This document shows positions 10,025 to 32,407 of a stretch of 64,000 nt of DNA, in pieces. The first letter of the stretch is position 1. Each line of letters begins with the position of its first letter. The notes beneath the pieces were generated by a model. It had not been told where the DNA came from and searched no databases. It saw only the letters and a program-made list of their open reading frames with translations. The position numbers were made by a program, and so were the translations under genes. Origin of the DNA: a virus; IMG/VR virus record IMGVR_UViG_3300037200_000067, positions 1 through 64,000 of that record. The stretch is one strand, 5' to 3'.

Positions 10025-10339
10025 ATGGCAAAAGCAACCGACCCGGCCCCGATTGATCAGCCGGCAGAAATCGCGGCGGCGCCGCTGGCCCCCAAGGACT
10101 CAGGAGCGCTTTATGACGTGTACAATCCGACGCCCCGGCGCCGGGTGATCTTTGACGGGATCGAGAACAAGGCCCCGATCGCGATCGTGTCGAAAGAGAC
10201 CAAAAAGGACGTGCTGCTGAGCGCGATGACGGTGAGGCGCCTGCGCGAGCGCGCCGCGCTGATCGGCGATGCCAACGAACTTGAGGTGCTTGATCCGGAG
10301 AGTGCCAAGCCGGCGCCGAAGGCCAAAGTCGCTGCGTGA
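10025..10339 (+). CDS. Small head-associated protein; paralogue of the glycosyltransferase N-terminal domain
   Basis: GGAGA RBS, directly after the major capsid gene. NPT...RVIFDGI motif shared with 28719..31832. Confidence 0.75.
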   Translation: MAKATDPAPIDQPAEIAAAPLAPKDSGALYDVYNPTPRRRVIFDGIENKAPIAIVSKETKKDVLLSAMTVRRLRERAALIGDANELEVLDPESAKPAPKAKVAA

Positions 10340-10680
10340 TGGGCGAAGCATCCGCTCCCGAACTTGAGAAGATCGCAGAGCGCGATCAGATCAAGCTCAA
10401 CGTGAGCCTGACGGGAAAGCTGCCAAAGCTTCCGCCGTGGGTTCGGGAACGGAAATTCAGATCGATGGGCGACGTGCTGCGGATCAGCGATTTAGTTGAC
10501 CTGACAAAGGCGCATCCGTTCGTCGACCACGAGTACGTCAAGACGCGGATGGCCCAAGGCGCGAAGCTGATCTGGTTTGAGATTCAGTGCTCGTGGGAAG
10601 ATGCGGAAGCGCAGTTCGGGCGCGACCCGACAGAGTTTCTTCGCCACACGACGATGCGTGAGATCAAGCAGCTATGGTGA
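10336..10680 (+). CDS. Hypothetical protein
   Basis: Overlaps the previous stop; same-strand operon member. Confidence 0.6.
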   Translation: MMGEASAPELEKIAERDQIKLNVSLTGKLPKLPPWVRERKFRSMGDVLRISDLVDLTKAHPFVDHEYVKTRMAQGAKLIWFEIQCSWEDAEAQFGRDPTEFLRHTTMREIKQLW

Positions 10681-10690
10681 GGGGTTCCGG

Positions 10691-11053
10691 GTGCCGACGC
10701 AGCAGAACTTCTCAGTCCCCTCTGGCGATGATCGGCAGGTCGAATTCACGATAGCTGCGGCTGACATGCCATCTGGAGATATCGTCGACGTCTACTGGCA
10801 AGCGTTTGATCAGGCCTACGGCGTTCCGACGTCCACCGTTCCCGTTGTCCAGAAGACGAGTGAAGGAAGCCCCGGCGACATCGACTATCCTGCGAGTCCT
10901 GGCGACGTCTTCACCGTCGATTTCATCCCGGCAGACACGAGCACGCTTCTCGGAAACTACTATCACGAAGCGCGTGTGGTCGACGGGAGCGGGAATATCT
11001 CGACGGTGATCTATGGCGTCATGACCGTGACGCAAACGGAGGTGGTCACATGA
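10691..11053 (+). CDS. Putative structural beta-sandwich protein (BppU N-terminal-like)
   Basis: GTG start after GAGGGG. F..ADT..L.G.YYHE..V.D..G...TV..G...V pattern. Confidence 0.6.
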   Translation: MPTQQNFSVPSGDDRQVEFTIAAADMPSGDIVDVYWQAFDQAYGVPTSTVPVVQKTSEGSPGDIDYPASPGDVFTVDFIPADTSTLLGNYYHEARVVDGSGNISTVIYGVMTVTQTEVVT

Positions 11054-11301
11054 GCACGCACAATCACATTTTCACGCCGTTCTCGATCTTGGACCCGGCC
11101 CTGATGCGCAAGCAGATCGAAACCGCTCTGGACGAGCACAGTCTGTTCACGCCGGTCATGGCCCTGAGCGACACGCTGATGCAGACCGCCATTCAGACCG
11201 CGACGGGCCGCGATACGATCTTCGCAATTCGAGGCCTGACCGACCCGCAATGGACGCCTGACGCTCTCGCTGCGGCGATGGGCCTCGATACGAGCCCGTA
11301 A
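11050..11301 (+). CDS. Small putative virion protein
   Basis: ATGA overlap; N-terminus resembles that of the next fibre gene. Confidence 0.6.
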   Translation: MSTHNHIFTPFSILDPALMRKQIETALDEHSLFTPVMALSDTLMQTAIQTATGRDTIFAIRGLTDPQWTPDALAAAMGLDTSP

Positions 11302-11312
11302 GGAGATAGCCG

Positions 11313-13049
11313 ATGACGACCGTCGTTCTCACGCCGCAAGACTTTCTCGACCCTGTCGCGCTCGCGAATAAACTCGCGGCTGCGATCAATGAAGGCGACG
11401 GCGCAGGGCTGGAAGGCTTCACCGCAACCTATGTCGCGGAGCCGTATGATGGCGCGACGAATCCAGCCGGCGTCCTTCAAGCGTATGACGGCACGGACGC
11501 GACAGACCCGGTTGACGTCGTGCTCATGCCGGGCGGTCAGCGCGAAGGTGAGCCTGACGGCAACATCACCTACGGCGCGATCCAGGCGACGCTTTCCGAT
11601 GGCACGCCAATTGGCGGCAATCAGCGTGGGACTGGCGCGGTCGATTTTCAGATGTTCCGCACTGATCCGTCGCAAGTCGCGTCGGGCATTTCGGCTTTCG
11701 CAGCGGGATCGGCGAACGTCGCGTCGGGCTGGATTTCGACGGCTTTTGGCGACGCCAATGAGATCACGGGGTTTATCTCTTACGGCGAGGGTTCGGGCAA
11801 CGTCGAGGCAGGGTCGATCAATCACGTCGAAGGGGCCGACAATACCGCTGACGGAACCTACGTCCACGTCGAAGGTGAGGGCAACAACGTCGGTGGCGTG
11901 TCTATGCACGTCGAGGGCTCAGGCAACACGGCAGAAGGCGAGCTTCAGTACGTCCACGTCGAAGGCTACCAGAACACCGTCAACAACAGCTATTCCCATG
12001 CTGAGGGCAGTGGCAACACGATCAACGCTGGGGGCGCGTATTCGCACGTCGAGGGGAATGGCAACTCGACGTCGGGGAACGCAGCGCACGCTGAAGGCTC
12101 TGGAACGCAAGCCAACGGCGCGCAATCGCACGCCGAAGGTTCTGGTACGCTGGCGGAGAGTATTGGCGATCACGCGGAGGGGGTGAACACCGCCGCAAAT
12201 AGCGCGGGAGGCGGCGGTGCGCACGCGGAGGGACTCAGCACGGCGGCAAGTGGACCACAATCCCATGCCGAAGGGAATACGACGCAAGCGCTGAGTAATG
12301 GTGATCACGCCGAGGGTTACAACACGACCGCCAATAGCGGAGGCGACGGAAATTATGGTGCGCATGCCGAAGGCGATTCGACACAAGCGCTAAACGACGG
12401 GGCGCATTCTGAGGGCGGCTACACGGTTGCGTCTGGCTACAATTCCCACGCCGAAGGACAAAGTACGGTTGCCGCAGGAGACTCATCGCGCGCCGAAGGC
12501 ATAAATACGGCGGCATATGGCTACGCGTCAAGGGTTGAGGGCAACTTCGCGACAGATTATGGGGTTTCAGGCGTAAGCGTTCGGGGCGCTTATGGCAGCA
12601 GCATCTTAGGTCACGCGCAGTCTACTATCGCCCTGTTCGTCACCGAGACCGAAGACGCCACTCCGACCGTGATGACGATCGACAACCAAGACCCTTCGAC
12701 GATCAATCAGGTCATTCTCGGCCAAGACAACGCGCTGTACTTCGCTGACGTGTACCTGACGGGCAAAGTCACAGGCGCAAGCGATTGGGTATCAATTTGG
12801 GCGCAGGTCACGGCGCAACGCGGAACAGGGGCCGCGTCCGTCACAATTCCCACCTCAGTCGGAGGCACAAATCCGGCGCTCGCGTTGACCAGCTACGGAA
12901 GCGTCACTGGCTTGACGTGGGGTTCCGGAAGCCCTCTCGCGCTCGTTGCTGACACCGACAACGGCGCGCTTCAGATTCAAATCACAGGCGCAGCCGATAC
13001 AAACATCCAGTGGTATGCCGAAGTCCGCACCCGCGAACAAGTATTCTGA
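11313..13049 (+). CDS. Fibre/adhesin with YadA-head-like beta-roll repeats (probable head fibre)
   Basis: About 17 tandem ~14-aa repeats of (S)H(A/V)EG. AAGGAG RBS. Lies before the head-tail adaptor gene. Confidence 0.75.
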   Translation: MTTVVLTPQDFLDPVALANKLAAAINEGDGAGLEGFTATYVAEPYDGATNPAGVLQAYDGTDATDPVDVVLMPGGQREGEPDGNITYGAIQATLSDGTPIGGNQRGTGAVDFQMFRTDPSQVASGISAFAAGSANVASGWISTAFGDANEITGFISYGEGSGNVEAGSINHVEGADNTADGTYVHVEGEGNNVGGVSMHVEGSGNTAEGELQYVHVEGYQNTVNNSYSHAEGSGNTINAGGAYSHVEGNGNSTSGNAAHAEGSGTQANGAQSHAEGSGTLAESIGDHAEGVNTAANSAGGGGAHAEGLSTAASGPQSHAEGNTTQALSNGDHAEGYNTTANSGGDGNYGAHAEGDSTQALNDGAHSEGGYTVASGYNSHAEGQSTVAAGDSSRAEGINTAAYGYASRVEGNFATDYGVSGVSVRGAYGSSILGHAQSTIALFVTETEDATPTVMTIDNQDPSTINQVILGQDNALYFADVYLTGKVTGASDWVSIWAQVTAQRGTGAASVTIPTSVGGTNPALALTSYGSVTGLTWGSGSPLALVADTDNGALQIQITGAADTNIQWYAEVRTREQVF

Positions 13050-13064
13050 GACAGGAGAAACCCG

Positions 13065-13598
13065 ATGGCTTGGTCCGTCCTCATCAATAATAAGGCCGTC
13101 GAAATGGCCCCGCCCGACGCCGCCGCGATTACCGCCGCGCAGGCGAAGATTACAGCACAGAACACGGTCGCGCCCGTCGCGCCGACAATCCCGCAGACCG
13201 TCTCCTATCGTACGTTCATGTCGCGGATCACGCCTGCGGAGAGCGCCGCGATTACGACCGAAGCGGCCAAGCAACTCGCGGCCTCCGCGCAGGCGACGCA
13301 ACTCACGCGCTGGTGGTCGCGCGTCCAGAAACAGCGCGGGATTATGATGCTCAACCGACCGGACGTGCAGGCGGTCGAGCAGAACCTCGTGGACAACGGC
13401 GTGCTGACGATCGCGCGCGCGGCAGTCTTGTTCGCGGTCGGGACGGGCATGGGCGCTGGCGTCGGCCCGAAGGCCAAGCACTACGGGGCCACGGGAGCCA
13501 CAGGGGCGACCGGAACGCACGCAGGCCACACCGGCGCGCGCGGCGGCGCGACGGGCGCCACAGGCGCCACAGGCGCGACTGGCGCGGCTGGCGCGTAA
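13065..13598 (+). CDS. Putative fibre-associated protein with a short collagen-like (G-A-T)n tail
   Basis: C-terminus GATGATGATG...GATGATGATGATGAAGA; ACAGGAG RBS. Confidence 0.65.
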   Translation: MAWSVLINNKAVEMAPPDAAAITAAQAKITAQNTVAPVAPTIPQTVSYRTFMSRITPAESAAITTEAAKQLAASAQATQLTRWWSRVQKQRGIMMLNRPDVQAVEQNLVDNGVLTIARAAVLFAVGTGMGAGVGPKAKHYGATGATGATGTHAGHTGARGGATGATGATGATGAAGA

Positions 13599-13613
13599 CA
13601 AGAGGCCGCTCCC

Positions 13614-13985
13614 ATGCCGTCAACGACCGTCACGGCCCAAAACGTTCGCCTGCGCTTTCCGGAATTCGGAACGCAAACCGACGCCGCGATCGAATTCGCC
13701 ATCGAGGATGCTTTGCGCGTCGGCGACGCAGCGACGCTCGGCCTCGATTACACGCGCTTCATCATGTACATGGCCGGGCATATCCTGATGGTCGGGATTT
13801 CCCGCGCGGAAAGCGCCAGCGGGCTTCAGATCGCCTCCGAAAGCATGGATGGCATCGGCGACATTACCTACCAGACCAACAGGCAGCCGACGATGGCTGA
13901 TCTCAACGACTGGACCACCACACCCTACGGGACAATGTGTCTCGACATCGTCAAACGTCAAATCCCGGCCGTGATGGTGATCTGA
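13614..13985 (+). CDS. Head-tail adaptor (DUF4054-like)
   Basis: RLRFPEF near the N-terminus and TTTPYG near the C-terminus. Confidence 0.8.
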   Translation: MPSTTVTAQNVRLRFPEFGTQTDAAIEFAIEDALRVGDAATLGLDYTRFIMYMAGHILMVGISRAESASGLQIASESMDGIGDITYQTNRQPTMADLNDWTTTPYGTMCLDIVKRQIPAVMVI

Positions 13986-13986
13986 C

Positions 13987-14358
13987 GTGAGCAGCATCGT
14001 TCCCCCGCGCAACTGGCAGCAGACGGCCACCGTCTTCTCAAACCTGATTCAGCGCTGGGGCATGCAGGCTCAACTCGTTCGCGCGGCCGGCGCGCGCTGG
14101 GTGACGATCGCCCAAGCAAGGTTCACCTCGACCGAAAAGTCCGGCAAGCTCTATCAGCCCACTGATCGCAAATTCGCGATGGCCTCTGCTGGGCAGACGA
14201 TCGCGCCCGACATGCAGGAAGACCACCTGCTGACGTTCACGCAGACCGGCGACCCGAATGCTCTCATTCCCGACGAAAACCTGAAGCTGGTCATCCCGCC
14301 AGAGCGTATCGCGCCGGGCGGGATTCTGATCGGCTGGACTCTCTGGGTGAGAAAATGA
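13987..14358 (+). CDS. Head closure / head-tail joining protein
   Basis: Position and size; C-terminal IAPGG.L.GWTLWVR. Confidence 0.6.
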   Translation: MSSIVPPRNWQQTATVFSNLIQRWGMQAQLVRAAGARWVTIAQARFTSTEKSGKLYQPTDRKFAMASAGQTIAPDMQEDHLLTFTQTGDPNALIPDENLKLVIPPERIAPGGILIGWTLWVRK

Positions 14359-14846
14359 TCGACGCGCGCGAGCAGATCATCCTTCGCCTGGTTGAACTGC
14401 TGGGCAGCGTCAGCGGCATCACCGCCGTTTATCGCGATCGTGGTCAGACGACGGAAGACAGCCTGCCCGCCGCTTACGTGCTCGACGGTGAGGAAACGAT
14501 TCCGCAAGAAGCGCGCGACGGGATATTTCGCAGCAAGAGCGTCAAAATGCGCCCGACGCCGATGACGCTGAGGCCGCAGATTTTCATCCTGCTGAAGCCG
14601 CGCGACACGGTTCTCAACCTGACCTTGGACAACGTATCGGCCCCAATCGGCCCGGAACTGAGCGCCTATCGTTTTCAAGTCCTGTCAGCAATTGTTAACG
14701 ATCCTACGCTCTTAGGTTTGCTGACGACCAACGGGCAGATGATTTATCTCGGGTGCGACACGGATATGCAGACCATGAGCGCGATGAACGGCTCTCTTCA
14801 GATGCACTTCGAGTTCACATACTTTCTTGACATGCCGCGAGGCTAA
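14355..14846 (+). CDS. Tail terminator / completion protein
   Basis: Position before the tail tube gene; D.REQII.RL...L, ND.TL..L and F.FTY patterns. Confidence 0.6.
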   Translation: MIDAREQIILRLVELLGSVSGITAVYRDRGQTTEDSLPAAYVLDGEETIPQEARDGIFRSKSVKMRPTPMTLRPQIFILLKPRDTVLNLTLDNVSAPIGPELSAYRFQVLSAIVNDPTLLGLLTTNGQMIYLGCDTDMQTMSAMNGSLQMHFEFTYFLDMPRG

Positions 14847-14857
14847 AGGAGAACACC

Positions 14858-15394: not shown

Positions 15395-15441
15395 TCTGAC
15401 GACCCGTAGGCCAAAAAACAAAAAATACTCTGGAGAACGCA

Positions 15442-16067: not shown

Positions 16068-16130
16068 GACTTCAACGTGGAAACCGCCCGGTTCCGCGTT
16101 GGAGACCCGAAAGGGCGTTCTCCAGAACTT

Positions 16131-16159: not shown

Positions 16160-16170
16160 GAGGACAAGCG

Positions 16171-16740
16171 ATGCCGACCGTCAGAATGTATCTCGGTGGT
16201 GATCGCATCGGGCCAAAGTTTCAGCGCTCAGTGTTTCGTCAAGGCGAACTGGTCCGCGACGCCGCGCGCGCCGCCGCCGTGGATGCGGCGTTTGAAATCC
16301 AGCAACGCGGCGCGGCCGACATCGCAGGGTCTGGCAAGTTCGGATCACGCTGGACCGAGGGGCTGCACGAGACGGTCACGGAAGGCGGCGGCAATATCCG
16401 CATCGCCGTCACGCACGATATTGCTTTCTGGCCGGTCTTTGAGTTCGGCGCCACGATCAAGGGCAAGCCTCTTCTCTGGATTCCTATGTCGTTTGCCGAT
16501 GATGCGCAAGGCGTCAGCGCGAAAGACTATCCCGGCGTCCTGTTCCGCGTCGATCGGAAGTCGGACGGTCTACCGTTGCTCTTGGCCGCAAGCGGCGTGA
16601 AGGGCGAGCCAGCGCAGGTCAAGTATTTCGCGAAATCGCAGGTGGTGATTCCACGCAAATGGCATCTGCGTGATATCGTTCGCGACGTAGCGCGGCACAT
16701 GGGGCAACTCTACAGGGCGAGGTTTACGAACCGTGGCTGA
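16171..16740 (+). CDS. Tail completion / neck protein (HK97 gp10-like)
   Basis: VFEFGATIKGKPLLWIP motif; basic protein just upstream of the tape measure. Confidence 0.6.
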   Translation: MPTVRMYLGGDRIGPKFQRSVFRQGELVRDAARAAAVDAAFEIQQRGAADIAGSGKFGSRWTEGLHETVTEGGGNIRIAVTHDIAFWPVFEFGATIKGKPLLWIPMSFADDAQGVSAKDYPGVLFRVDRKSDGLPLLLAASGVKGEPAQVKYFAKSQVVIPRKWHLRDIVRDVARHMGQLYRARFTNRG

Positions 16741-19700
16741 CGCAGACAATATCGTCGTCGCGCTCGTCCTCGATGGCGTCGACAAGATCAAGTCTGACCT
16801 TCAGGCGGTCGCATCCGCTGTCAGCACGACTTTCAGCAACGTCCATGAGAGCCTAGCCGGCGTTTCCGAGCAACTTACGGCTGTCTCGACGAATATTCAG
16901 TCGACGGCCCAGACGACTGACGAGGTTTCCAAGCACGTCGAAAGTTCTGGCGATAAAGCCGAGGGCTTCGGCGCGAAGCTGAGCGAGGCCGGCCACAAGG
17001 GCGAGGAGGCGTTCAAAGGCGTCAATGCTGCTGTTCAATCGACGGTCGGCGCACTGAATACCTTGTCTGCGGAAGGGACGCTCAGCGCTCTTGAAGGGCT
17101 CGGCGAAGGCGTCGAAGCGGTCACGAGTCAATTCGGTACGTTCGGGCGCATCCTTGGTCTGACGGCGATCGGAGCCACAACCGTTGGCGTTGCGTTCGGC
17201 GCCGCGACTTACGGGCTTCTGGAATTCGGACGCGCTGGCGGCGAAGCGGCGCAAGAAATCGTCCAACTCGCGCATATGACGGGTTCAAGCGTCGAGCAAA
17301 TCCTCGCGCTTCAGGACACCATGACGAAGGCGGGTATTTCCGCCGGCAACATGGCGCAGATGTTTCGGATCATGTCGATCCGCATTCAGGCGGTGTGGCC
17401 CGACATCGTTCGCGATGCGAGGGACGCGGCTGACAATCTGGCGAAGAACGATCTCGCGATTGCCGCAGCGAGCCAGGGCGTCGTCACGGCGAAGATCAAG
17501 GAAGCCGAATCCGTCGTCAGCGCGGCCGAAGCGTCGCGCAGCGTCCTATCGGCGCAGGACGCTGTCACGGAGGCGACGATCAAGGCGCGTGAAGCGGCGA
17601 TCGATTACGCCGGTTCACAAGACAAATTGGCGCAGGCCGCGATCACGGTGCGGCAGGCGCAATTCGGCGTCATCGACGCCTATCGCGACGTCGAGCACCA
17701 GCAGCAGGACGCCCATTCGGCCGCTACAAGCGTGGCAGAGGCTGAGTACAATCTCTCGCTCGCGCAGGGCGGACGCAAGGACGCGCAACTCGAGAAGACG
17801 TTCAAAATCCAGCATGCCGAGGAGGCGCTCGCGCAGGCGCGCCAGCGCCAGGCTGAGGTGCAAGAGAACGCGCAAAAAAAACAGGCCGCATTCGAGGAAG
17901 CGCAAATCCATCTGCGCGACGCTGAGCGCGCGCGGGACAAGGCGACGCTCGACCAGAAAACCTCACAGCTTCAATATCAGGCCGCCCAACGCGCGCCCGC
18001 GACGGCAGAGGCCAATTATGCGAAGGCGATCCTCGCTGAGGCGACCGCCAATCTCGAGAAGACGGCTGCGATCGATGGCGTCCGCAAGGCGACGATCGAT
18101 CTCACCGACGCGCAGAACAAAGAGCACGACGACTTTGAGCACAGTTCGACGGCCGTCGCCGACCAACTGAACGGCTTCCGCAAAAACATCAACCTCACAC
18201 AGGTCAATTCCGAGACGCTGTTCAAGGCCATGCTCAAAGGCTGGCATGACCAAGCGGGGGCTGCGGCGGATGCGGTGCCGACCGCCATTCAGGGCATCGA
18301 TGCTCTGGCGAAATACTACAAAAAGCTCAGCGCTGAGCAGCGACAGTCTGTCGAGCGCCTAGCGTTTGGGCGCAATGCGACGCCGGAGGAAGACGAGTTT
18401 ATCGCTGAACTGAATAGGCGTGGAGAGTCGCTTGATCAGGCGCTGAAAGACGCGTCACCAGATTTTGCGAAGCAGGCGAGGGACGTCAAGAAAGCCGCTG
18501 ACGCCTACAAAGAACTGAACGCAGCGAGTGGGACGTTCCAATCCGACTTGAATGCCATGCTCCGGCCGATCCAGACCGATTTCATGAAGGGCTTCACGGG
18601 GAGCTTCAAGGAATTCGGCGAGACGCTCAAACTCAATGGTCCAGACATTGAGAAGTTCGGCCACGAGATCGCGGTCAATATTGTTCCCGTTATTCAGAGC
18701 GTGCTCGCACTCCTGACGGGCAACACGCCGAGGATGCCGTTCTTCAAGCACCTGGCGGACGACGTTCAACTCGTCACGGGCCATATCAAGGAGCTTGCCG
18801 AGGTTCTAGCCGCGCTGTTCGCGATCGACCTTGGCGCTGGCCTACTCAAGAAGATCGGGACCATAGGCACTGCGGTATCGGACGCGGCCAAATTGGCCAG
18901 AGAGGCGAATGTCGCTAGGCCCGGAAGTATCCCCGGCCTTCCCGAGGGTCGCATTCCGCCGGTGGTTCCCGTTCCTCCCGTGCCCGCTACAGGCATCGGG
19001 GCGCTTTTGGCGGAGCTTACCGCAGGATTCGTTCGGCTATTGCCGGCCATTTCCCGGTTCGGAATCGCGCTCACGCTTTTGGACCTTGGGATTCGCGGTG
19101 CAGTAACCGCTGACAAAAACACCGGCGCGCTCGCTGAGGAAAACCGCGCGCGCCAGCGCATTGACACTGAGGCGGCAAGCGCGGGCCAAGAACTTGCGGC
19201 CGCGAAGTCTGGATATGACCCGAAAGAGATTGCCAAACGTGAGGCATTGATCGCCGCTCATCCGGAACGGGCTCACGATCAGACCGACCGCGAGAATTTC
19301 CCAGACGTCGTGCGCGCGGAGGAACGCCTCGCGGAAGTCGCGCGCGCGCGGGCTGCGTCGGAAGCGCGCGTCAAAGCGATCAACGATCGCATCACAGGCC
19401 CCGCCCGCGTTGCTGAAGCCGTCGCCAAGCGAGCCGACGAAGAGAAAACGGGCGCTGCGTTGCTCAAAGGCGCGATGACGCCGCGTGAGGAAACGCCTGC
19501 CGAGGCTCCTGGGCCAGACAAAACCTATGGTGCGCTGACGGAAGGACTCGCATCGACACATGGCAGCGCGCCCGGCGCGCCACCGCCTACGGTCGTTCAG
19601 CCAAAGCCGGAAGACGTCACGGCGGGCCATCGCCAGTTCCAGATCATGCGCGGCGGCCAGATCACAACCTATGACGCCGTCACAGGCAAAGAAGTTAGCC

Positions 19701-22246
19701 ACGCAGGGACCGCGTCGACGGCGCCAGAAAGCCCACAGGCCCTTCTCGACGAAGCAAAGCACGCGCCAACGGCGACAGAGATCAGCCGCCAGCACGAAGC
19801 CGCGCCGGCGCCGCCCGGCACGCATCAGGTCCAGATCGTCCGTAACGGCCAACTGGAGACGATCAACGTCGAGGGACCGACGCCTCCCGCGCCAGCCGCG
19901 CGCGCGCCACAGGCCAGCGTCGGCGATCAGGGCGACGTTGGACCCGCTGGTCCGCCCGGCGCGGTGACGCCAGCCAGCGCCCCGCCGCCGCCGTCCCATC
20001 GCGTCATTGAGGTCAACCGTGGCGGCAAGATTGTCGCGGTAGACGCCGATACGGGCGCGCCAGTCAGCGCCGCCCCCGCACAATCCATCATCCCGGCAGC
20101 AATCACCGCGCCAGCATCCGTCTCCCCACCAGGACGACCCGAACAACTGGAAAAATCGGCGACGGCTCAACGCCAGGCGACGGCCTCATCCGAAGCCTCT
20201 GTGTCGTCGTCGTCAGCGGTCGAGCGCAGCACCGATCGCATCGCGACGAACACCGATCGCGTCGTCACGGCGGTTGAGCGCGCCACGGTCGAGAAGATCG
20301 CGCCGGCGCCCGGAACCGCGCCCCTCGGCAGCAGGCTGGAAACCGGCCAAGGCGCTGCGCCTGCCGGGCTGATCGAAGGGCGCATATCCGCCGCCGAGGC
20401 TTCGCTCCCCGCGCCGAAGGCAGCGGACGCGCTCGCGCAGATCGCGACCATCGCCGCCGAGCGGCAACCCGCCGCGCCGATCGTCCAGCCGAGCGCGGCC
20501 GTTGCGTCGCCCGCCGCAGCATCGGCCCGCATCGAACATATCGTCGTCGCGGCTGATCGGCTTGGCATCGCGTCGACTTCACTGACGACGGCATCCACGG
20601 CGATCACGAGCGCGGAGACGAAGGAAAGCGACGCGGCGACGGGCCTCAAGTCCACGGTCGGTAATTTCGCCGCCTCCATCAGTGCATTCAGCACCGCGGT
20701 CGTCGCGCTGCGAACTGCGGCCGACAAGCTCGCTGGCGGAAAGAAGGGCGACGAAGGCGCTCCCAAGGACGACGGGACGGCGGCGGCGTCCGGCGGCGGC
20801 GGGAGCGGAGGATCAGGTGGCGCGGGCGGCGGTGGCGCCGCTCCTAGCGGCGGTGGCGAAGGCGTCGACACGGGCGTTCCAGTTTCCAATGTCGTCCCTG
20901 CCGTCGCGAGGCCGACGACCGCGCCTCCGTCAGTTGCGACGCCCACGGCGGCGCCGGCTACTGCCGCCGCGCAGGACGGCGGGGCGCTCCAGCCGCGCGT
21001 GACGCTTGAGGGCCGCGCGGCGCCCACGAGCGCATCAGGCGCGCCAGCGGCGAGCGGCGGGACGCCCGCTACTGTGAGCCAGCCGGGAGCATCTGCGGCT
21101 CAAACGGGAGCCTTTGCGCCTTCACTTGGAGCTTCTGGCGGCGAAAGTGGGGCTGGCGGCGAGGCGAGCGCGATCGCGGTCGGCGGAGCAGGGCTCGGCG
21201 GCGTCTCCACAATGGCGACGCCGGGGTCCGGGGTTCTGCCACCGGCTGGTGCGCCTATTCCAGATTTCCTGAAGCAACTCTCACCAGAGGACTATGAGCG
21301 CGATCCGACAGGCCGCACCGTGCCAAGCTATCCGTTCCGAGAGGGTCAAACGCCCTATCAGATCAACACCGTGCTTGGGGGCGCGCCAATGTCGTATCTT
21401 GGCGAAAATATGGACGCGGCGATCGACAAGGGCGAAGCGATCGCGGAAAAGAAATTGCAGCAGGAATACAAGCGCGACCCGTTCAAGTTTCAACAGGACT
21501 CCGAAAAGCCGCCAAAGCCTAATCCCATCTTCCCGTCGCCTTTCGCGGATCAGACCTACGCCCAACGCGTCAAGGGGACGATGCACGACGAAGACGGAAA
21601 CCAGATTGCGGTCGACAGGGAGCTTCCGCCCGACTATTCGATCAACACGCAACCCGGCGCGCAGCCGGTCGGCTTCACGCCAAGCGAAGGTTACGGCTAC
21701 GCCGGCAACAGCGGCGACACTGTCGACCCTGGCTTTGCGACTGGCGGCCACATTCAGGGTCCGGGTTCGACGACGTCCGACAGCATCCCGATCATGGCGT
21801 CGCACAATGAATTCGTCATGCAGTCGAAGGCGACCGAACATTGGGGCGTCGACTTCATGCACGCGATCAACGAAGGCCGCATTCCGGCGATGTTCAATGG
21901 CGGCATTCTCGGTGATCGCGATGCTGGCGCGGCGGCGCTTCCGTTCAGCAGCATGTTCGCACCACCGCGCGAGGAAGGCGCGTCCTTCAAGGGGTTCGCT
22001 ATGGGCGGCGTGATCGACGGCTTCGCGGCGGCGTTCTCGCATCCTCTCATTCCCGATGCGCCAAAATTCGCGGGCGGCGGATCGGTCCCGAGCGGTTCGT
22101 CCATGCGGCCCTTGACGCTGGTCATTGGCGATCAGAAATTCGGTGGCCTGATGGCGCCCGAAAAAACGGCTGGAGACATGACCAAATTCGCGATCAACCA
22201 GCAATTGACCTCGACCAGCCGCAACTCGCCAAGTTGGAGGCGCTGA
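16733..22246 (+). CDS. Tape measure protein with a long Pro/Ala/Gly-rich insert
   Basis: 1837 aa with an Ala-rich helical N-terminal half. C-terminal FATGGHIQGPGSTTSDSIPIMASHNEFVM motif typical of siphovirus tape measures. Confidence 0.88.
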   Translation: MADADNIVVALVLDGVDKIKSDLQAVASAVSTTFSNVHESLAGVSEQLTAVSTNIQSTAQTTDEVSKHVESSGDKAEGFGAKLSEAGHKGEEAFKGVNAAVQSTVGALNTLSAEGTLSALEGLGEGVEAVTSQFGTFGRILGLTAIGATTVGVAFGAATYGLLEFGRAGGEAAQEIVQLAHMTGSSVEQILALQDTMTKAGISAGNMAQMFRIMSIRIQAVWPDIVRDARDAADNLAKNDLAIAAASQGVVTAKIKEAESVVSAAEASRSVLSAQDAVTEATIKAREAAIDYAGSQDKLAQAAITVRQAQFGVIDAYRDVEHQQQDAHSAATSVAEAEYNLSLAQGGRKDAQLEKTFKIQHAEEALAQARQRQAEVQENAQKKQAAFEEAQIHLRDAERARDKATLDQKTSQLQYQAAQRAPATAEANYAKAILAEATANLEKTAAIDGVRKATIDLTDAQNKEHDDFEHSSTAVADQLNGFRKNINLTQVNSETLFKAMLKGWHDQAGAAADAVPTAIQGIDALAKYYKKLSAEQRQSVERLAFGRNATPEEDEFIAELNRRGESLDQALKDASPDFAKQARDVKKAADAYKELNAASGTFQSDLNAMLRPIQTDFMKGFTGSFKEFGETLKLNGPDIEKFGHEIAVNIVPVIQSVLALLTGNTPRMPFFKHLADDVQLVTGHIKELAEVLAALFAIDLGAGLLKKIGTIGTAVSDAAKLAREANVARPGSIPGLPEGRIPPVVPVPPVPATGIGALLAELTAGFVRLLPAISRFGIALTLLDLGIRGAVTADKNTGALAEENRARQRIDTEAASAGQELAAAKSGYDPKEIAKREALIAAHPERAHDQTDRENFPDVVRAEERLAEVARARAASEARVKAINDRITGPARVAEAVAKRADEEKTGAALLKGAMTPREETPAEAPGPDKTYGALTEGLASTHGSAPGAPPPTVVQPKPEDVTAGHRQFQIMRGGQITTYDAVTGKEVSHAGTASTAPESPQALLDEAKHAPTATEISRQHEAAPAPPGTHQVQIVRNGQLETINVEGPTPPAPAARAPQASVGDQGDVGPAGPPGAVTPASAPPPPSHRVIEVNRGGKIVAVDADTGAPVSAAPAQSIIPAAITAPASVSPPGRPEQLEKSATAQRQATASSEASVSSSSAVERSTDRIATNTDRVVTAVERATVEKIAPAPGTAPLGSRLETGQGAAPAGLIEGRISAAEASLPAPKAADALAQIATIAAERQPAAPIVQPSAAVASPAAASARIEHIVVAADRLGIASTSLTTASTAITSAETKESDAATGLKSTVGNFAASISAFSTAVVALRTAADKLAGGKKGDEGAPKDDGTAAASGGGGSGGSGGAGGGGAAPSGGGEGVDTGVPVSNVVPAVARPTTAPPSVATPTAAPATAAAQDGGALQPRVTLEGRAAPTSASGAPAASGGTPATVSQPGASAAQTGAFAPSLGASGGESGAGGEASAIAVGGAGLGGVSTMATPGSGVLPPAGAPIPDFLKQLSPEDYERDPTGRTVPSYPFREGQTPYQINTVLGGAPMSYLGENMDAAIDKGEAIAEKKLQQEYKRDPFKFQQDSEKPPKPNPIFPSPFADQTYAQRVKGTMHDEDGNQIAVDRELPPDYSINTQPGAQPVGFTPSEGYGYAGNSGDTVDPGFATGGHIQGPGSTTSDSIPIMASHNEFVMQSKATEHWGVDFMHAINEGRIPAMFNGGILGDRDAGAAALPFSSMFAPPREEGASFKGFAMGGVIDGFAAAFSHPLIPDAPKFAGGGSVPSGSSMRPLTLVIGDQKFGGLMAPEKTAGDMTKFAINQQLTSTSRNSPSWRR

Positions 22247-25813: not shown

Positions 25814-25816
25814 CGC

Positions 25817-26461: not shown

Positions 26462-26472
26462 CAGGAGAAGAA

Positions 26473-26733: not shown

Positions 26734-26745
26734 GGCCCTGATCGC

Positions 26746-27942
26746 ATGGTCGACATCACATACGTTACGGCTGGCGAGTGGGGGCCGGGCCAAGGCACAA
26801 AATTGAGCGCGCCTCAGGCAGACGACAATATGTGGGCGCTCGCCTCGGCGGTTGTCGCGCTTCAGGACCATGCCGGCGTCGGCGTCGGCATTGCCAGTAT
26901 CGAGCAGATCAACGCCACGCAGTTCATGATCTATCTGACCAACGGGAACGGCGAAGGGCCGTTCACGTTGCCGACCAACCCCTGGAATTTCACGGGGCCA
27001 TGGCTGCCGGACACGCCGTATCTGCCCAACGACGTCGTCACGGCAAACGGCGCGGTCTATCTGATCACCTTGTCGTTTACCAGCGCGTCGGCGTTCAGCC
27101 CGAGCGCGACGGACGGCGACGGGCATCTTCTTTATAATCTCCTGCTGAGCAACCCTGACACAGTATTGCCCGCCGGGGGCCTGACCGGCTACACGCTGGT
27201 CAAGCGCAGCAACGCCAACTATGACGTCGCATGGGGCACGAACGCGATCGAAACCCTGACCGACGTCTCGATCAGCGAGTCTCCCCCGCCAAGCCTCTAT
27301 GACATCCTCGTTTACGACGCCGGCATCTGGACCAATGTCAGCATCGACACGATCGCCAGTTTGCTGCTCAATGTGGAGAACCTCGCGAATGTCGAATCAT
27401 ATGCCGAGAGTTCTGCTGGGTACTATGTGCTTTATGGCTATAGTGACGGTGTTGGCGACGTTTACTGGACTTCCACGCCCGTCGACACGTTCAACAACGA
27501 CCTGCTCCTCGGATACCTCGCTGACGCGGAATATCTGAATTATTCGATTACGCCAGCGACAGGCCAGTTTCTGCGCTATGGCAGCAGCTTCTGGGAACCC
27601 GAGAATATTCAAACGACGGATATCAACGATACGTTGACGGACCTCGGCTCTATCAGCGGAACGGCGACGGTTGATCCTTCTGTCGGATCATTATTCATGG
27701 CCGAGCCGTCTGGCGATTGCACCATCGGATTGGCTTCGCTCACAGGAACCACGGGCCGAGAAATCAAAATCCAGATCGAGACGTCGGGCAGCGTCCCTTA
27801 CAACATCACGTTCGATGACGTGAGCGGATTTATTTCGCAAGGCGTCCTGTCGACCGGGGTTCTCGACAGCAAGCGTTTCGTGGTATCCTTCGTCAGCGAC
27901 GGAACCTACATGAGCGAAACCAGCCGCACGTCGGCGATGTGA
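26746..27942 (+). CDS. Putative tail fibre / receptor-binding protein
   Basis: W.PDTPY..NDVV..NG..Y (CBM5/12-like), LPAGG.TG..L.K.S..NYD..W and L.DV spacer motifs common in fibres. Confidence 0.65.
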   Translation: MVDITYVTAGEWGPGQGTKLSAPQADDNMWALASAVVALQDHAGVGVGIASIEQINATQFMIYLTNGNGEGPFTLPTNPWNFTGPWLPDTPYLPNDVVTANGAVYLITLSFTSASAFSPSATDGDGHLLYNLLLSNPDTVLPAGGLTGYTLVKRSNANYDVAWGTNAIETLTDVSISESPPPSLYDILVYDAGIWTNVSIDTIASLLLNVENLANVESYAESSAGYYVLYGYSDGVGDVYWTSTPVDTFNNDLLLGYLADAEYLNYSITPATGQFLRYGSSFWEPENIQTTDINDTLTDLGSISGTATVDPSVGSLFMAEPSGDCTIGLASLTGTTGREIKIQIETSGSVPYNITFDDVSGFISQGVLSTGVLDSKRFVVSFVSDGTYMSETSRTSAM

Positions 27943-27945
27943 TCG

Positions 27946-28719
27946 ATGCCTGGGACTCCGAACGTCGACAAGCCGGGCGGACCCTATCGGCTCGATCCGT
28001 TCCAGCGGGTGGTAAATTACCAATATGGATGGCCGCAGTACATAGCTCCCGGCTGGTTTCTGTACTTCCTGTCGGTAACGTACGACTCGGCGACAGAGGG
28101 CGCGGCGGCGAGTGCGGAGGCCTACGTCAAAGCGAACCTCACGCTGATGCCAAGTTCGATCGCCGCATGGGCGACGCTGATCCTGGCGTGGCCCGGTCCT
28201 CCCACGCCGTTCCCTGTCCCTCCACTACCTGGGCCTGGGCCGGCAGTCCCGACGGCCGATCTGACGTTTGCGGACATCTATGGTGAGCCAAACACGGACC
28301 TCTTCCCGTACCTGACGCCGCAAGTGAACATACCAACGAACACGTTCACAAGCCTCGTGTCGTCAACCACGGAACAGACGGGATTTTCCACGTCCGGAGC
28401 GATGCTCAACACCGGCATTCACGGCGTCGGATTTATCGCGAGAACGTTCATCGGCTGCGCGACCTATCTGAGCAGCCCAGATCAAGTCATCACGGGAGCC
28501 GGCGCAGGGGGACTTGGGCTGTTTGACCCGGCTGATTTTGGCGCTGGAGGCGAGAGCTTTTCCGTCGATCAGTGGAATAATCAGTACACGAACGGCTTCG
28601 CCCATCGGTGGGGCTGGGCGGGAGGAGAACCGACGTTCACAGGCGAGTTAGCGACGGTGATTGCCACGCCTCCTGGCGTTGAAATGAATGCGACATGGTA
28701 TATTAGGGAGGGGTATTAG
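27946..28719 (+). CDS. Putative tail-associated protein
   Basis: PYRLDPFQRVVN N-terminus; operon position. Confidence 0.55.
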   Translation: MPGTPNVDKPGGPYRLDPFQRVVNYQYGWPQYIAPGWFLYFLSVTYDSATEGAAASAEAYVKANLTLMPSSIAAWATLILAWPGPPTPFPVPPLPGPGPAVPTADLTFADIYGEPNTDLFPYLTPQVNIPTNTFTSLVSSTTEQTGFSTSGAMLNTGIHGVGFIARTFIGCATYLSSPDQVITGAGAGGLGLFDPADFGAGGESFSVDQWNNQYTNGFAHRWGWAGGEPTFTGELATVIATPPGVEMNATWYIREGY

Positions 28720-31700
28720 TGGTCTATTGCACGCTGCACAATCCGACGAAAACGCCGCGCGTCATCCATGACGGCATCCCAGGATCGCAGAAGAAAATTC
28801 CGATCGGGCCAAACGAAACGACAGAGCCTGTCGAAATCGCCTTGCATATCGTCGAGACGCTGAGGGCGCGCCGCAATACGCTGATCGTCAACCAGCTTCG
28901 TCGACCCGACGCGCCCGCGCCCGTCGAGATTGGCGAATTGATCGCGCCAGAACCCGCCCCGGCGCCCGGCCGAAAGCCGCCGATCGTCATCCAGGGCATG
29001 TGGGGCATCGGCGATAATCTCCATCAGCGCGCCTTCCTGCGCGAACTGATGAAGACCAAGGATGTGTGGCTGGAGACCTGCTTTTTCCACCTCTACCACG
29101 ACATGATTCCGCAAGGTCTTCATATCATCCCAAGGCGCACGCGGCTGCGGGCGCAGGCCAAGATCATTGCCCAAGAAGAATCGCTGCATGGTCCTCTTGT
29201 TCCGCTCCCCGCCAACGCGCCGGCGCCGATAAAAATCTGGTACTACAAGACCGAGATTGATCGACAGGGATCAATCCTCGCGGAAATGATGCACCGCGTC
29301 GGCGTGAAGGTTCCGAGACCCGATTTCAGCATGCCGGTCCCTGACGAATGGAGGGCCACGGCAAGAGCGCTGATCAGCGGATGGAAGACCAGCGGCAAGC
29401 CGATCCTGCTCTACCGGCCGATCGTTCTCAGAAAAGAATGGGACGGAGCGGCCAGAAATCCCGATCCTCTGGTCTATCAGGCTCTGTTCCGATCCATCCG
29501 AGACAGGTTTTTCGTCGTGTCGCTCGCTGATCTTGAACCGGGGGTGGAATGGATCGTCGGCCCTGATCAGGCGGCAGACGTGAAATTGCATCACGCCGAG
29601 CTGGATTTTCGGGGCATGGCTGGATTGTTTGCCGAGGTCGACATGGCGTTTTGCTGCGCGGGCATGGGGCCGGTGCTCGCTCAGGCCGTCGGAACTCCGG
29701 TGGTGATCGTCTATGGCGGCAGGGAGAGTTTCAAGACGACGGAATCAGCCGGCGCACACCTCGCGCCGACGCTGGGGCTTGATCCAAACCATCCTTGCGA
29801 CTGCCACAGCCATCGGCATGCCTGCGATAAACGGATGACCCTGGCGCCCGCCCTAGGGCGTCTGAGGGCCTTCGTTGACGAACACACGACCAGGCGCCGG
29901 ACGTTGATCTTCGCCACGACCTATGTCGACTGTCGAGAGCGGGCGATGCTGACGGACCAATGGATTACTTTGGTCAAGGAAAAGAACCCCTGGTGCGATA
30001 TTCTGATCGTCGACGCGAAAAGCCCATGGTCGCCGCTGATTGATGAAAAGTCTCACGGCAGATTCATCAAGTACACGCCCGGCCGGCAAAGCCGCCAGAT
30101 GCTGCATGTGTTTGACGAGAACGTCGGCCACCTTTCACGAGGAGGCAAAGACGGCTGGGGGCGCGCCTTCACCTTCGGGCTTCAGGCGGCGATCGACTGC
30201 GGCTATGACTTCGTGGCCCATATCGAGGGCGACAGTCTTTTCAGGCTTCCTGTCGGGCCGATCATTGATCAGATGGCGCATGAGAACGTGAAGGCCATGT
30301 CGATCCCGGTTGTCGGGATGACGGTGACGCTGAGGGATTGGGTTGAGACCGGCCTGATGTTTTTCGAGACCGCCTATCTGCGCGAAAGCAAATTCGTCGA
30401 GAAATACGACTGGAAGGCTCGCACGCCGGCGCCGACGCCCGAAAAGGTGGTGAGGGCTCTGCTGGGCGACAGTCTCGTCATGGCGTCGTGGAAGGGCATG
30501 AGAGGCGACAAGGGCCAGATCACGCACAAAAACGTCGACAAACTCGACCTCGACTGGATCACGCATTGCCACACCGACGTCTGGGCTTATGATCGCTTTC
30601 TCGCCCTCGCGTTGGGCCGAAAGGAGGTGGTGCCAAGTGTACGAGGAAATGCCGTGGAGCCCTTACCGGCCCCCGATGTCGCCTCTCAGAGGCCCATTGT
30701 AGCGACGCCAGCCGAGAAGCTGAATTTCGGGTGCGGGACGAACAAGCTTCCCGGCTGGCGCAACATGGACATCGAGGTCGACATCGAAAAGCCGCTGCCC
30801 TTCGCGGATCATTCAGCTTCAATCGTTTTCTCAGAGCATTGCGTCGAGCACGTCGACTATTATGCGGCTATCCGGTTTTTTCAGGAAGCGTGGCGCGTGC
30901 TAAAGCCTGGCGGCGTGATCCGGATCGCGGTTCCATCCATCGAAAAGATCATGGAGAGCGATGACGCCGAATATTGGAAATTCTCGACCAAATTTCAGAC
31001 CAAGGGTCCGACCAAACGCGGCGCGATGCACGGCATCCTGTTCTCCCACGGCCACAAGACCGGCTGGACATCGAACCTTCTCAGAGCCACGCTCTATTAC
31101 GCGGGCTTTGAAGACCTGACGATCCATATGCCGGGCGAGTCCTTTAGAGACGAAACCAAAAACCTCGAAGGGCATGACAAGGTCATAGGAAAACGGTTCA
31201 ATGATCTCGAAACGATCGCCGTCGAAGGCGTGAAGCCCGATCCAGAAGCGATGGCGAGGATGGCTGCGACGGTTCAACCGATTGCTCTTCCATCCCCTGA
31301 TCCGATCAAGCTCGCGATCGTGGTCGGCGGCGGCAATGATCCGATCGAGGAAGCGCAGCAAGCCGCCCTTTACGCTCACAAAGCGGGCCTTGAACCGACT
31401 TATTTCATCGTAAACGACATGATCGCCCACTTTCCGCATGAGGCCGTTGCGGTCACATTGCATCGTGAGAAGCTTGAGGGCTGGATGCAGACGCGCGTGC
31501 GCGAGGGACTGCCGCTGATCAGTCAAGTCTGGGGCCACCGCAAATATGACCGCATCACCAATGTCACCGAGGACTGGTCAGGCTCATCCGGCCTGTTTGC
31601 GGTCAAGATCGCCCGGATGCTCGGGTTCACGCGGATCATCTTGGCTGGCGTCCCGATGACGGCGGACGGCAATCATTTTGTGCGCAAAGTGAGGTGGAAC

Positions 31701-31832
31701 GCCGTGCAGGGCTTCCGCCGAGGCTGGGAGCGCCATAAGGACGAGATCGCGCCTTACGTGCGCTCAGTGTCGGGCTGGACCGCCGAGCAGTTCGGCAAGC
31801 CGACAGAGGACTTTCTGAGGGGCAAGCCGTGA
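28719..31832 (+). CDS. Multidomain enzyme: head-protein-like N-terminus + GT9-like (GT-B) + GT-A-like + class I SAM methyltransferase + Maf/MptE(DUF115)-like domain
   Basis: QGMWGIGDNL and GPVLAQAVGTPVVIVYGG (GT9); ILIVD...VAHIEGDS (GT-A); KLNFGCG...EHCVEH...RVLKPGGVIRIAVP (MTase); AIVVGGG...SGSSGLFAVKIA...IILAGVPM. Confidence 0.8.
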   Translation: MVYCTLHNPTKTPRVIHDGIPGSQKKIPIGPNETTEPVEIALHIVETLRARRNTLIVNQLRRPDAPAPVEIGELIAPEPAPAPGRKPPIVIQGMWGIGDNLHQRAFLRELMKTKDVWLETCFFHLYHDMIPQGLHIIPRRTRLRAQAKIIAQEESLHGPLVPLPANAPAPIKIWYYKTEIDRQGSILAEMMHRVGVKVPRPDFSMPVPDEWRATARALISGWKTSGKPILLYRPIVLRKEWDGAARNPDPLVYQALFRSIRDRFFVVSLADLEPGVEWIVGPDQAADVKLHHAELDFRGMAGLFAEVDMAFCCAGMGPVLAQAVGTPVVIVYGGRESFKTTESAGAHLAPTLGLDPNHPCDCHSHRHACDKRMTLAPALGRLRAFVDEHTTRRRTLIFATTYVDCRERAMLTDQWITLVKEKNPWCDILIVDAKSPWSPLIDEKSHGRFIKYTPGRQSRQMLHVFDENVGHLSRGGKDGWGRAFTFGLQAAIDCGYDFVAHIEGDSLFRLPVGPIIDQMAHENVKAMSIPVVGMTVTLRDWVETGLMFFETAYLRESKFVEKYDWKARTPAPTPEKVVRALLGDSLVMASWKGMRGDKGQITHKNVDKLDLDWITHCHTDVWAYDRFLALALGRKEVVPSVRGNAVEPLPAPDVASQRPIVATPAEKLNFGCGTNKLPGWRNMDIEVDIEKPLPFADHSASIVFSEHCVEHVDYYAAIRFFQEAWRVLKPGGVIRIAVPSIEKIMESDDAEYWKFSTKFQTKGPTKRGAMHGILFSHGHKTGWTSNLLRATLYYAGFEDLTIHMPGESFRDETKNLEGHDKVIGKRFNDLETIAVEGVKPDPEAMARMAATVQPIALPSPDPIKLAIVVGGGNDPIEEAQQAALYAHKAGLEPTYFIVNDMIAHFPHEAVAVTLHREKLEGWMQTRVREGLPLISQVWGHRKYDRITNVTEDWSGSSGLFAVKIARMLGFTRIILAGVPMTADGNHFVRKVRWNAVQGFRRGWERHKDEIAPYVRSVSGWTAEQFGKPTEDFLRGKP

Positions 31833-32407
31833 GCAACATCGCAGCCGATTACGACGACAAGTTTTTCCAGATGCATGTCGGCTGGCGCGCCGAATACAAC
31901 GCCATGGCCGAGATTCTGATCAAGCACTTGCTTGGTGGAAAATCGACCGTCATCGATATCGGCTGCGGCAACGGCTATATCGCACAGAAGCTGATCTCGC
32001 GCGGGTTCCGCGTGGTCGGCGTCGATGGATCGCCCGTCGCCCGCAAGTATTTCCCGCAAGTGCTGATCCGCGACCTGCGCACGCCTTACGCGCATCCCCA
32101 AAGGCACGACCTCGTAATCTGCACGGAAGTCGCCGAACATCTTGAGGAGAAGTTCGCCGATACGCTGGTCCAGTCGATCATCGCCTGCGCCAAGGACACG
32201 ATCTGGTTTTCAGCGGCGGTCGCCGGCAACGGCGGCCACCTCCACCTCAACGAGCAGCCGCACGAATACTGGCACGAGAAATTCGCCGCTAAAGGCTGGA
32301 TCGTCGATGAGGAGAAAACCGAGGCGATCCGCGCCGATCTCCACGAGCGGGTGATCAATATCTGGTGGTTCGAGGCCAACAGCTACGTGCTGCGAAGGGC
32401 GCAATAG
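31829..32407 (+). CDS. Class I SAM-dependent methyltransferase
   Basis: VIDIGCGNG, GVDGS, DLVICTEVAEHL and HLNEQPHEYW motifs. Confidence 0.85.
   Translation: MSNIAADYDDKFFQMHVGWRAEYNAMAEILIKHLLGGKSTVIDIGCGNGYIAQKLISRGFRVVGVDGSPVARKYFPQVLIRDLRTPYAHPQRHDLVICTEVAEHLEEKFADTLVQSIIACAKDTIWFSAAVAGNGGHLHLNEQPHEYWHEKFAAKGWIVDEEKTEAIRADLHERVINIWWFEANSYVLRRAQ

Follow-up and report, generated by a model that had tools for sequence, protein, structure and literature searches.

How a virus-encoded glycosylation enzyme finds its substrate is largely unexplained, and virion glycosylation encoded by the virus itself has been documented only in a few actinophages and in giant algal viruses. This question is raised by the DNA analyzed here, the first 64 kb (hereafter, the window) of the 74,259-bp IMG/VR virus record IMGVR_UViG_3300037200_000067, which has direct terminal repeats and a completeness rating of 100%. 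The window encodes the same small module (hereafter, the tag) twice, once as a free protein directly behind the major capsid protein gene and once at the N terminus of a 1037-amino acid (aa) enzyme predicted to consist of glycosyltransferase and methyltransferase domains. Why should a phage encode one module both beside its capsid gene and in front of a putative glycan-building enzyme? The analysis described below indicates that, in a whole phage clade, a glycan assembly line of five domains is linked to a tag encoded beside the capsid gene and that the tag is reused on other enzymes.

Homology between the free and fused tags

The free tag copy is a 104-aa protein encoded at positions 10025-10339 (+ strand). 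Its open reading frame (ORF) starts 44 nucleotides (nt) past the stop codon of the major capsid protein gene (9037-9981, + strand; 314 aa), which was assigned by PF09950 (E = 3.5e-78, 262.8 bits). The sequence GGAG is present 9 nt upstream of the ATG codon of the free tag gene, and the G+C content at the third codon positions (GC3) is 0.78, a typical value for the genes of this genome. The fused tag copy corresponds to residues 1-60 of the enzyme (28719-28898, + strand). The gene of this 1037-aa enzyme occupies 28719-31832 (+ strand), and its GTG start codon overlaps the stop codon of the preceding gene. The preliminary description had placed both ORFs at these positions and in these frames, correctly, and had reported a manual alignment of the enzyme N terminus with the small protein (18 identities in 44 columns). 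In a single BLASTP comparison, residues 6-51 of the enzyme were aligned with residues 32-76 of the small protein with 19/48 identities (E = 3e-4), in agreement with that alignment.

The enzyme N terminus alone matches the post-capsid small proteins of four related phages, and the enzyme homologues of three relatives start with the same module. When a profile of eight small proteins was compared with a profile of four enzyme N termini by hhalign, they were aligned over 55 columns with a probability of 99.1% and an E value of 8.3e-19, so that the shared domain also proved significant at the profile level. Because of this profile match, the free and fused tags are judged to be homologous at the sequence level and not similar by chance. 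A purely fortuitous or compositional resemblance, with the small ORF not being a gene, is hardly credible: the pairwise BLASTP E value is modest when taken alone, but the hhalign E value (8e-19), a family of 183 members, conserved synteny, the GC3 value, and a confidently predicted fold all speak against it. The profile match and the size of the family already refute chance similarity.

Within a genome, the free copy resembles the fused copy no more than it resembles copies from other genomes, and the two were never found as sister sequences. Resolution was poor in a tree of 30 tags, which neither showed nor rejected that the fused copies have one origin (p-AU, the p value of the approximately unbiased test, 0.15). 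By these sequence comparisons, the two kinds of copies are ancient paralogues, and the duplication of the tag is old. The preliminary description had spoken of a copied domain; the duplication stands, but the recent event that this wording implied does not.

Structure of the tag

The folded module of the free tag protein extends over approximately residues 27-89 (nt 10103-10291), and both ends of the protein are disordered and rich in Pro, Ala, and Lys. The module profile matches the free and fused copies with E values of 9.6e-21 and 2.4e-27, respectively. The AlphaFold2 model of the free copy, for which 122 family members served as the alignment, is compact, with a predicted local distance difference test (pLDDT) score of >90 over residues 30-90, and consists of four strands, a helix, and a further strand in this order. 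The fused copy has the same order of elements (strands 2-7, 14-17, 26-29, and 34-40, helix 42-50, and strand 56-60), again with pLDDT >90. It is followed by a Pro/Ala linker (residues 61-86; nt 28899-28976), in which residues 66-83 have pLDDT <50. The small post-capsid proteins of the relatives have the motif N-P-x(3-4)-R-V-I-x-D-G, followed by P-G-E-T-K, the helix, and D-L-x-V. One Asn is invariant in 122/122 free and 47/47 fused tag copies, and one Arg is nearly invariant.

The tag matched no family in Pfam, PHROG, or NCBIfam, and no description of it was found in full-text searches of the literature. A Foldseek search of the tag model against the PDB returned nothing at E ≤ 0.001, and a wide VIA-align search of solved structures gave a best Z score of 4.1. 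The prophage protein YqbF (2hjq; Z = 3.8) is regarded only as a lead, as are the entries annotated as HeH/LEM in the fold searches. Comparison with BFVD gave weak matches to uncharacterized proteins (best E = 0.057), and the ESM Atlas contained matches only in unnamed viral clusters. The module of ~55-60 aa is an autonomous α/β domain with a confidently predicted fold, and the phage family to which it belongs had no name so far.

Pam3 gp8, which is encoded in the same post-capsid slot in that phage, was considered as a relative of the tag and rejected, with an hhalign probability of 0.1%. The C-terminal parts of some free tag proteins have features of their own. A subset (P0131, P0148, P0156, P0161, P0169, and P0222) has the conserved C-terminal peptide K-P-T-L-G-L-P..K-K, and another subset (P0137, P0181, P0182, P0258, P0264, and P0270) has a helical C-terminal extension like the DNA-binding motifs of the HeH/Rho_N type. 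The peptide and the helical extension suggest a second binding function at the tail of these proteins.

The tag family and its fusion partners

A profile search of 1.84 billion representative proteins yielded 183 tag members with E values of at most 0.001, and 72 remained when the limit was set to 1e-10; three of the listed matches are repetitive false positives. Most members are 70-140 aa long, and 132 of the 148 newly listed proteins have at most 200 aa. The tag also fronts other glycosyltransferase-type enzymes, which answers in the affirmative the question, posed in the preliminary description, of whether the shared domain recurs. It precedes a GT9-like domain alone in P0209, P0244, and P0238. 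P0159 is composed of the tag and a Maf-like domain only, with 42% identity to this enzyme in the tag and 45% in the catalytic part (residues 854-1033). Two other kinds of unassigned domain also follow the tag (P0165/P0193/P0252 and P0125/P0219); neither kind matched a Pfam or NCBIfam family or could be aligned with any domain of this enzyme. In P0152, the tag sits inside the chain, between domains, and three proteins (P0125, P0232, and P0269) have tandem tags.

Tblastn searches with two tag-family members found no match in 50,697 cultured phage records. No related locus was found when the single enzyme or P0159 was used as the query, and a degenerate DNA pattern for the tag matched one short contig.

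Distribution in related phages

All nine related contigs that were found via the capsid protein encode a small tag protein immediately behind the capsid gene; the free tag gene was within ~250 nt downstream of the capsid gene wherever this was checked. Exactly two tag copies, one as a small ORF and one as the enzyme N terminus, are present in each of the ten complete genomes whose enzyme is tagged (this one, G001, G002, G004, G007, G009, G013, G029, G032, and G033). Conversely, four complete phages or proviruses with an untagged homologue of the enzyme (G020, G025, G046, and G049) have no tag anywhere in the genome. More than 120 enzyme homologues with 40-59% identity were found; most of the ~1000-aa forms start with the tag, whereas the first domain in the forms from Mesorhizobium and from proviruses is either Maf-like or GT9-like. 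In G001 and G002, a methyltransferase gene directly follows the free tag gene in the head module, and one contig adds an MptE-like gene.

Some relatives hold the same enzyme parts split over two or three genes. In these relatives (loci L012, L013, L017, and L019 of G001/G002; L003-L005), the split genes are adjoined by genes for a radical-SAM/SPASM protein, methyltransferases of the TylF and FkbM types, a GHMP kinase, and a class 3 lipase. The genomes of the clade have sizes of ~72-78 kb, and its capsid gene has >2,500 relatives in metagenomes. These phages probably infect alphaproteobacteria; likely hosts are members of the Rhizobiales such as Mesorhizobium, in which homologues of the enzyme without the tag are found.

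Proposed function of the tag

The tag is interpreted as a targeting or docking domain because it is small, autonomous, flexibly tethered, reused on unrelated catalytic domains, and sometimes doubled. The head is favored as the address because the free paralogue is locked to the slot behind the capsid gene and because modification genes join the free tag there in the relatives. Tandem tags would be expected for avidity on a lattice. We rate the chances as about even that the module is a portable address tag, most likely one that steers the enzyme to the virus particle, with the head as the likeliest address. The reading given in the preliminary description, in which a head-binding domain docks a glycan assembly line on the capsid, is supported in part.

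The following mechanism is proposed. The tag would bind to a site that recurs on the particle during its assembly, with the head lattice (capsid or cement protein) as the likeliest place, and the binding would concentrate the enzymes at the particle late in infection. The cement protein, which is encoded by a 173-aa gene just upstream of the capsid gene (8462-8983, + strand; PF22758 Phage_cement family of E217 gp24/Pam3 gp6, 77.5 bits; phrog_563, virion structural protein), is a candidate surface partner of the tag on the head. The GT9-fold domain may initiate or elongate a glycan on a structural protein, much as TibC modifies autotransporters. More sugars would be added by the GT-A and Maf-like domains, and the two methyltransferases would cap the chain. 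As to the sugar, the GHMP kinase gene beside the enzyme genes of some relatives hints at heptose as the donor moiety. The free tag protein may fill these sites too; it would then be a small decoration protein or would compete with the enzyme and so release it.

Several points weigh against this proposal. The tag has no fold match to a solved decoration or cement protein (best Z = 4.1), and the head already has a cement protein of its own (PF22758). Identities of the tag are ~25-45% compared with 63-84% for the major capsid protein among the related phages compared, a weaker conservation than a tightly bound capsid ligand should show. The enzyme gene adjoins tail genes, not head genes. No phage among the 50,697 cultured records carries the tag, so neither a virion proteome nor a cryo-EM map exists for it. 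The co-occurrence of tag and enzyme is largely the history of one clade and is confounded by descent; it supports a functional link without proving it. The contact between tag and capsid, the glycosylation of the virion, and the identity of the glycan are points that we infer. Co-folding of the capsid protein, the cement protein, and the tag gave a score of 0.00, which is below the mark and provides no verdict either way.

The invariant pairing of the two copies could also be read as recruitment of like by like, in which the tag pairs with other tag copies, the free protein functions as an adaptor or a glycan acceptor, and no contact of the tag with the head is needed. The free and fused copies always co-occur and vanish together, and modification genes stand directly after the free tag gene in G001 and G002, both in favor of such a pairing. 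The Asn shared by all 122 free and all 47 fused copies could serve as an acceptor or belong to an interface. Likewise, the long disordered tails of the free proteins, including the subset with K-P-T-L-G-L-P..K-K, could carry glycans or bind elsewhere. The fold predicted by AlphaFold2 is, however, compact and monomeric and needs no partner strand, the tails lack conservation and are nearly devoid of Ser and Thr in this phage, and tandem tags are better suited to avidity on a lattice. The observation that the two copies of one genome resemble each other no more than copies across genomes is also unfavorable to self-pairing, which we consider rather unlikely.

If the tag instead binds to the particle, as proposed above, it would supply a testable targeting rule for viral protein glycosylation, a new domain for annotation, and a compact handle for attachment to capsids, and it would explain how soil phages might mask or stabilize their heads. 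In a more general form of this proposal, the tags would constitute a family of capsid-address domains, in which a portable fold docks interchangeable enzymes on the head lattice, singly or in tandem, and the free paralogue occupies or regulates the same sites. Such a family would dock glycosyltransferases of at least three folds as well as the still unassigned domains. This generalization is put forward tentatively, as somewhat doubtful. If it is true, phage capsids would have a display-and-recruitment system of natural origin, and phages of Gram-negative soil bacteria would have a means of producing heavily glycosylated virions.

Domain structure of the enzyme

The AlphaFold2 model of the enzyme has a mean pLDDT of 88.6 and shows five domains, including the tag, with three disordered linkers between them. 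The domain behind the tag (residues 87-391; 28977-29891, + strand) is a GT-B domain with the GT9 (heptosyltransferase) fold, as judged from VIA-align, Foldseek, and phrog_6804 (E = 1.3e-34). In VIA-align, the Z scores were 19.9 to 3tov, 18.5 to WaaF, and 17.2 to WaaC, with ~255-266 residues aligned (2h1f, 1psw, and 3tov), and the Foldseek E value to 1psw was 8.5e-8. TibC, a protein-modifying enzyme with the GT9 fold, is among the best structural matches; residues 85-391 of the model were aligned to residues 95-391 of 4rap_A with a Z score of 19.6 and a root-mean-square deviation (rmsd) of 2.7 Å for 255 residues. At the sequence level, PF01075 did not match this enzyme and matched 15/47 relatives weakly (best E = 0.0034), and a profile search against PDB sequences found no GT9 enzyme for this domain; no sequence-level match to TibC was found either.

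In a G-I-G-D motif of the GT9-fold domain, G96, G98, and D99 are invariant in the 47 relatives. The motif lies in the region that is equivalent to that of the catalytic Asp of GT9 enzymes (D110 in TibC and D13 in WaaC). A Cys/His cluster is present at residues 360-369, where C360 and C369 are invariant and C362 and H363 are nearly invariant. It lies in the region of the four-Cys iron finger of TibC, but its spacing differs from that of Cys339, Cys342, Cys358, and Cys370 in TibC.

The next domain (residues 392-635; 29892-30623, + strand) has no Pfam match and resembles glycosyltransferases of the GT-A fold in VIA-align. Z scores of 13-16 (approximately 15) were obtained with hyaluronan synthases, SpsA, TarP, and PBCV-1 A64R (2p6w; Z = 13.3). 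In its H-I-E-G-D stretch, H501, E503, and G504 are invariant and D505 is nearly so; this stretch may correspond to a DxD motif. Residues 664-848 (30708-31262, + strand) form a class I S-adenosylmethionine (SAM)-dependent methyltransferase domain, with a PF08241 match at residues 686-734 of 35.9 bits against a cut-off of 21.2 and a match to PDB entry 8k76 (E = 0.0011). This domain is present in 47/47 relatives. The C-terminal Rossmann-like domain (residues 862-1037; 31302-31832 with the stop codon, + strand) resembles MptE/Maf (DUF115) proteins in weak sequence matches. PF01973 did not match this enzyme and matched 3/47 relatives (best E = 0.0021). BLASTP aligned ~100 residues of the domain with a stand-alone protein of a relative that itself matches PF01973 with 51.5 bits (E = 6e-4), which weakly supports the Maf/MptE-like assignment. 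In the fold search with the enzyme model, the matches listed fell on the other domains.

As modeled, the enzyme is a tethered chain of GT-B (GT9), GT-A, methyltransferase, and Maf-like domains. A free-standing class I SAM methyltransferase of 192 aa is encoded directly behind it (31829-32407, + strand), and its start overlaps the stop of the enzyme gene. It matches PF13489 (36.4 bits; cut-off, 27), PF13649 (32.9 bits), and PF08241 (31.8 bits). Thus, the domains named in the preliminary description can be retained with different degrees of assurance: the GT9-like and GT-A-like domains at the fold level, the methyltransferase domain by Pfam, and the Maf/MptE-like domain on weak evidence, whereas the second methyltransferase gene is above the Pfam thresholds. 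No genes for sugar-nucleotide supply were found among the ~60 ORFs of the window that were scanned.

The domain composition bears on the question of whether the target is in the virion at all. GT9 enzymes classically act on the core of lipopolysaccharide (LPS) and Maf enzymes on flagellin; the enzymes of this phage may accordingly act on the host, where the LPS core, flagellin, pilin, or some other protein of the envelope would be modified, for instance as a barrier to superinfection. A host target or a membrane site would then be what the tag recognizes, and the post-capsid slot would be historical. The tag-less enzymes of proviruses and Mesorhizobium genomes occur where lysogenic conversion would make sense. 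The tagged form, in contrast, is found in phages with terminal repeats and inside the late structural operon, a host target would not readily account for its constant association with a gene that lies within the head module, and the best match of the GT9-fold domain by rmsd is TibC, which modifies a protein. We regard a target outside the virion as unlikely.

Comparison with known glycosylation systems

Mycobacteriophages and chloroviruses glycosylate their capsid proteins with their own enzymes (PMC11256854, PMC7826918, PMC9614988). In PBCV-1, the major capsid protein bears a methylated glycan that is assembled by multidomain enzymes (PMC7826918, PMC9614988). As in the present enzyme, a single viral polypeptide joins several glycosyltransferase domains in A064R and A111/114R, and A064R also contains a methyltransferase (PMC7826918, PMC9614988); the GT-A domain of A64R (2p6w) matches the one found here with the Z score of 13.3 given above. 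PBCV-1 is, however, a eukaryotic giant virus, and its enzymes have no GT9 fold, no Maf-like domain, and no tethered tag in common with a capsid-adjacent gene. In the phage studied here, moreover, glycosylation is a prediction.

In mycobacteriophages of the Che8 type (PMC11256854, PMC12363180), as in this phage, glycosyltransferase genes lie in or beside the structural operon. Their enzymes modify capsid and tail proteins and are separate single-domain enzymes that act on extensions of structural proteins, and no address tag is described for them. The five-domain fusion of this phage differs from these actinophage enzymes.

TibC and Aah (PDB IDs: 4rap and 4rb4; PMC4358343) share the GT-B fold of the GT9 type with the present enzyme (Z = 19.6, rmsd = 2.7 Å). 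They glycosylate protein and not LPS, have a β-rich N-terminal domain that is needed for activity, and have a metal-binding Cys cluster late in the C-lobe (PMC4358343). The N-terminal domain of TibC is a packed β-barrel, whereas the enzyme described here has an α/β module tethered by a linker. The iron finger of TibC consists of four Cys residues with another spacing, and TibC acts as a dodecamer on a β-helix substrate.

Fusion of a substrate-binding domain to a protein glycosyltransferase is known from FlmG (PMC7591256). In FlmG and Maf systems (PMC7591256; bioRxiv 10.1101/2023.12.03.569772), as proposed here, protein is O-glycosylated in the cytoplasm and a separate domain (the tetratricopeptide repeat [TPR] domain of FlmG) or an adaptor protein supplies substrate recognition to a catalytic domain; a Maf/MptE-like domain may be a further common element. 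They differ in that the recognition parts are unrelated to the tag in sequence and fold, the target is flagellin, and the recognition domain has no described free paralogue.

The closest GT9-like relatives in cultured phages considered here are those of the Pseudomonas phages D3 (orf12), PAJU2 (ORF011), and PMG1 (phrog_6804), which are homologous to the GT9-fold domain with 28-30% identity (E = 1e-16 to 4e-18). These genes stand alone among head-tail and tail genes and encode neither a tag nor further enzyme domains. None of the known systems compared has the tag or a free paralogue of it beside the capsid gene. Whether this GT9-like enzyme family glycosylates virions would be readily testable in the cultured D3-like Pseudomonas siphophages. 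In PAJU2 (L098), the GT9-like gene is located at 5001-5828, between the head-tail adaptor and tail genes, and it is also present in D3, PMG1, and ~20 other records.

Genome organization

Along its + strand, the window carries a portal gene (411-3656, + strand; PF06381), whose product has 1081 aa, of which the portal family covers only residues 56-449. It is followed by genes for a 532-aa protein with an Acb1 anti-CBASS (cyclic oligonucleotide-based antiphage signaling system) domain (4543-6141, + strand; PF23474, E = 2.7e-42) and for a DUF2213 protein that bears a double zinc ribbon (6593-8413, + strand), both upstream of the cement and capsid genes.

This fusion of extra domains to head proteins (Acb1 in the 532-aa protein and the long extension of the portal) would be in keeping with the idea that the tag is a packaging signal, by which the small protein as well as the enzyme would enter the capsid and be delivered to the next host, where the host surface or other molecules would be altered early. 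T4 Alt is a precedent of an enzyme that is packaged in the head and injected. The Lys/Arg-rich ends and HeH-like extensions of some free tag proteins would be suitable for contacts to DNA. With four folded domains in 1037 aa, the enzyme would nevertheless be a bulky cargo, and the other cargo domains in this genome are covalently joined to the portal or MuF and are not tagged. In addition, a glycan assembly line with two methyltransferases suits late decoration more than an early strike. Packaging is thus a distinctly improbable role for the tag; even if the target were the capsid interior or the host, the tag would still be an undescribed addressing device.

Downstream of the free tag gene are head-tail and tail genes, including that of an 1837-aa tape measure protein (16733-22246, + strand) and further large ORFs in the tail region. 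The genes of the enzyme and the second methyltransferase lie between the tail genes and the gene of a GH108 endolysin (33792-34589, + strand), and the enzyme gene overlaps the stop codon of the preceding tail-region gene. Their position at the end of the structural operon, as given in the preliminary description, is therefore correct. The late structural operon houses glycosyltransferase genes, which is a trait of virus-encoded virion glycosylation systems.

This genome has no close cultured phage. The best matches of its major capsid protein in cultured phages have ≤48% identity and are from Acinetobacter, Rhizobium, and Aminobacter phages and the cyanophage Pam3; megablast of the structural region against cultured phage records gave no match.

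Some other genes of the window may be mentioned. A 398-aa tail-region protein is encoded just upstream of the enzyme (26746-27942, + strand), and its match to CBM_5_12 is weak and below the threshold (E = 0.0022). Behind the second methyltransferase gene, a gene for an RlaP-like nucleotidyltransferase (PF10127; 32431-33408, - strand) runs opposite to the late operon. The GH108 endolysin gene is directly followed by a homing endonuclease-like gene containing NUMOD3 (34586-35308, + strand). The early region encodes two DNA methyltransferases, N6_N4_Mtase and MT-A70, at 51316-52578 and 54082-55419 (both + strand), near the recombination genes ERF (49677-50555) and YqaJ (45728-46435).

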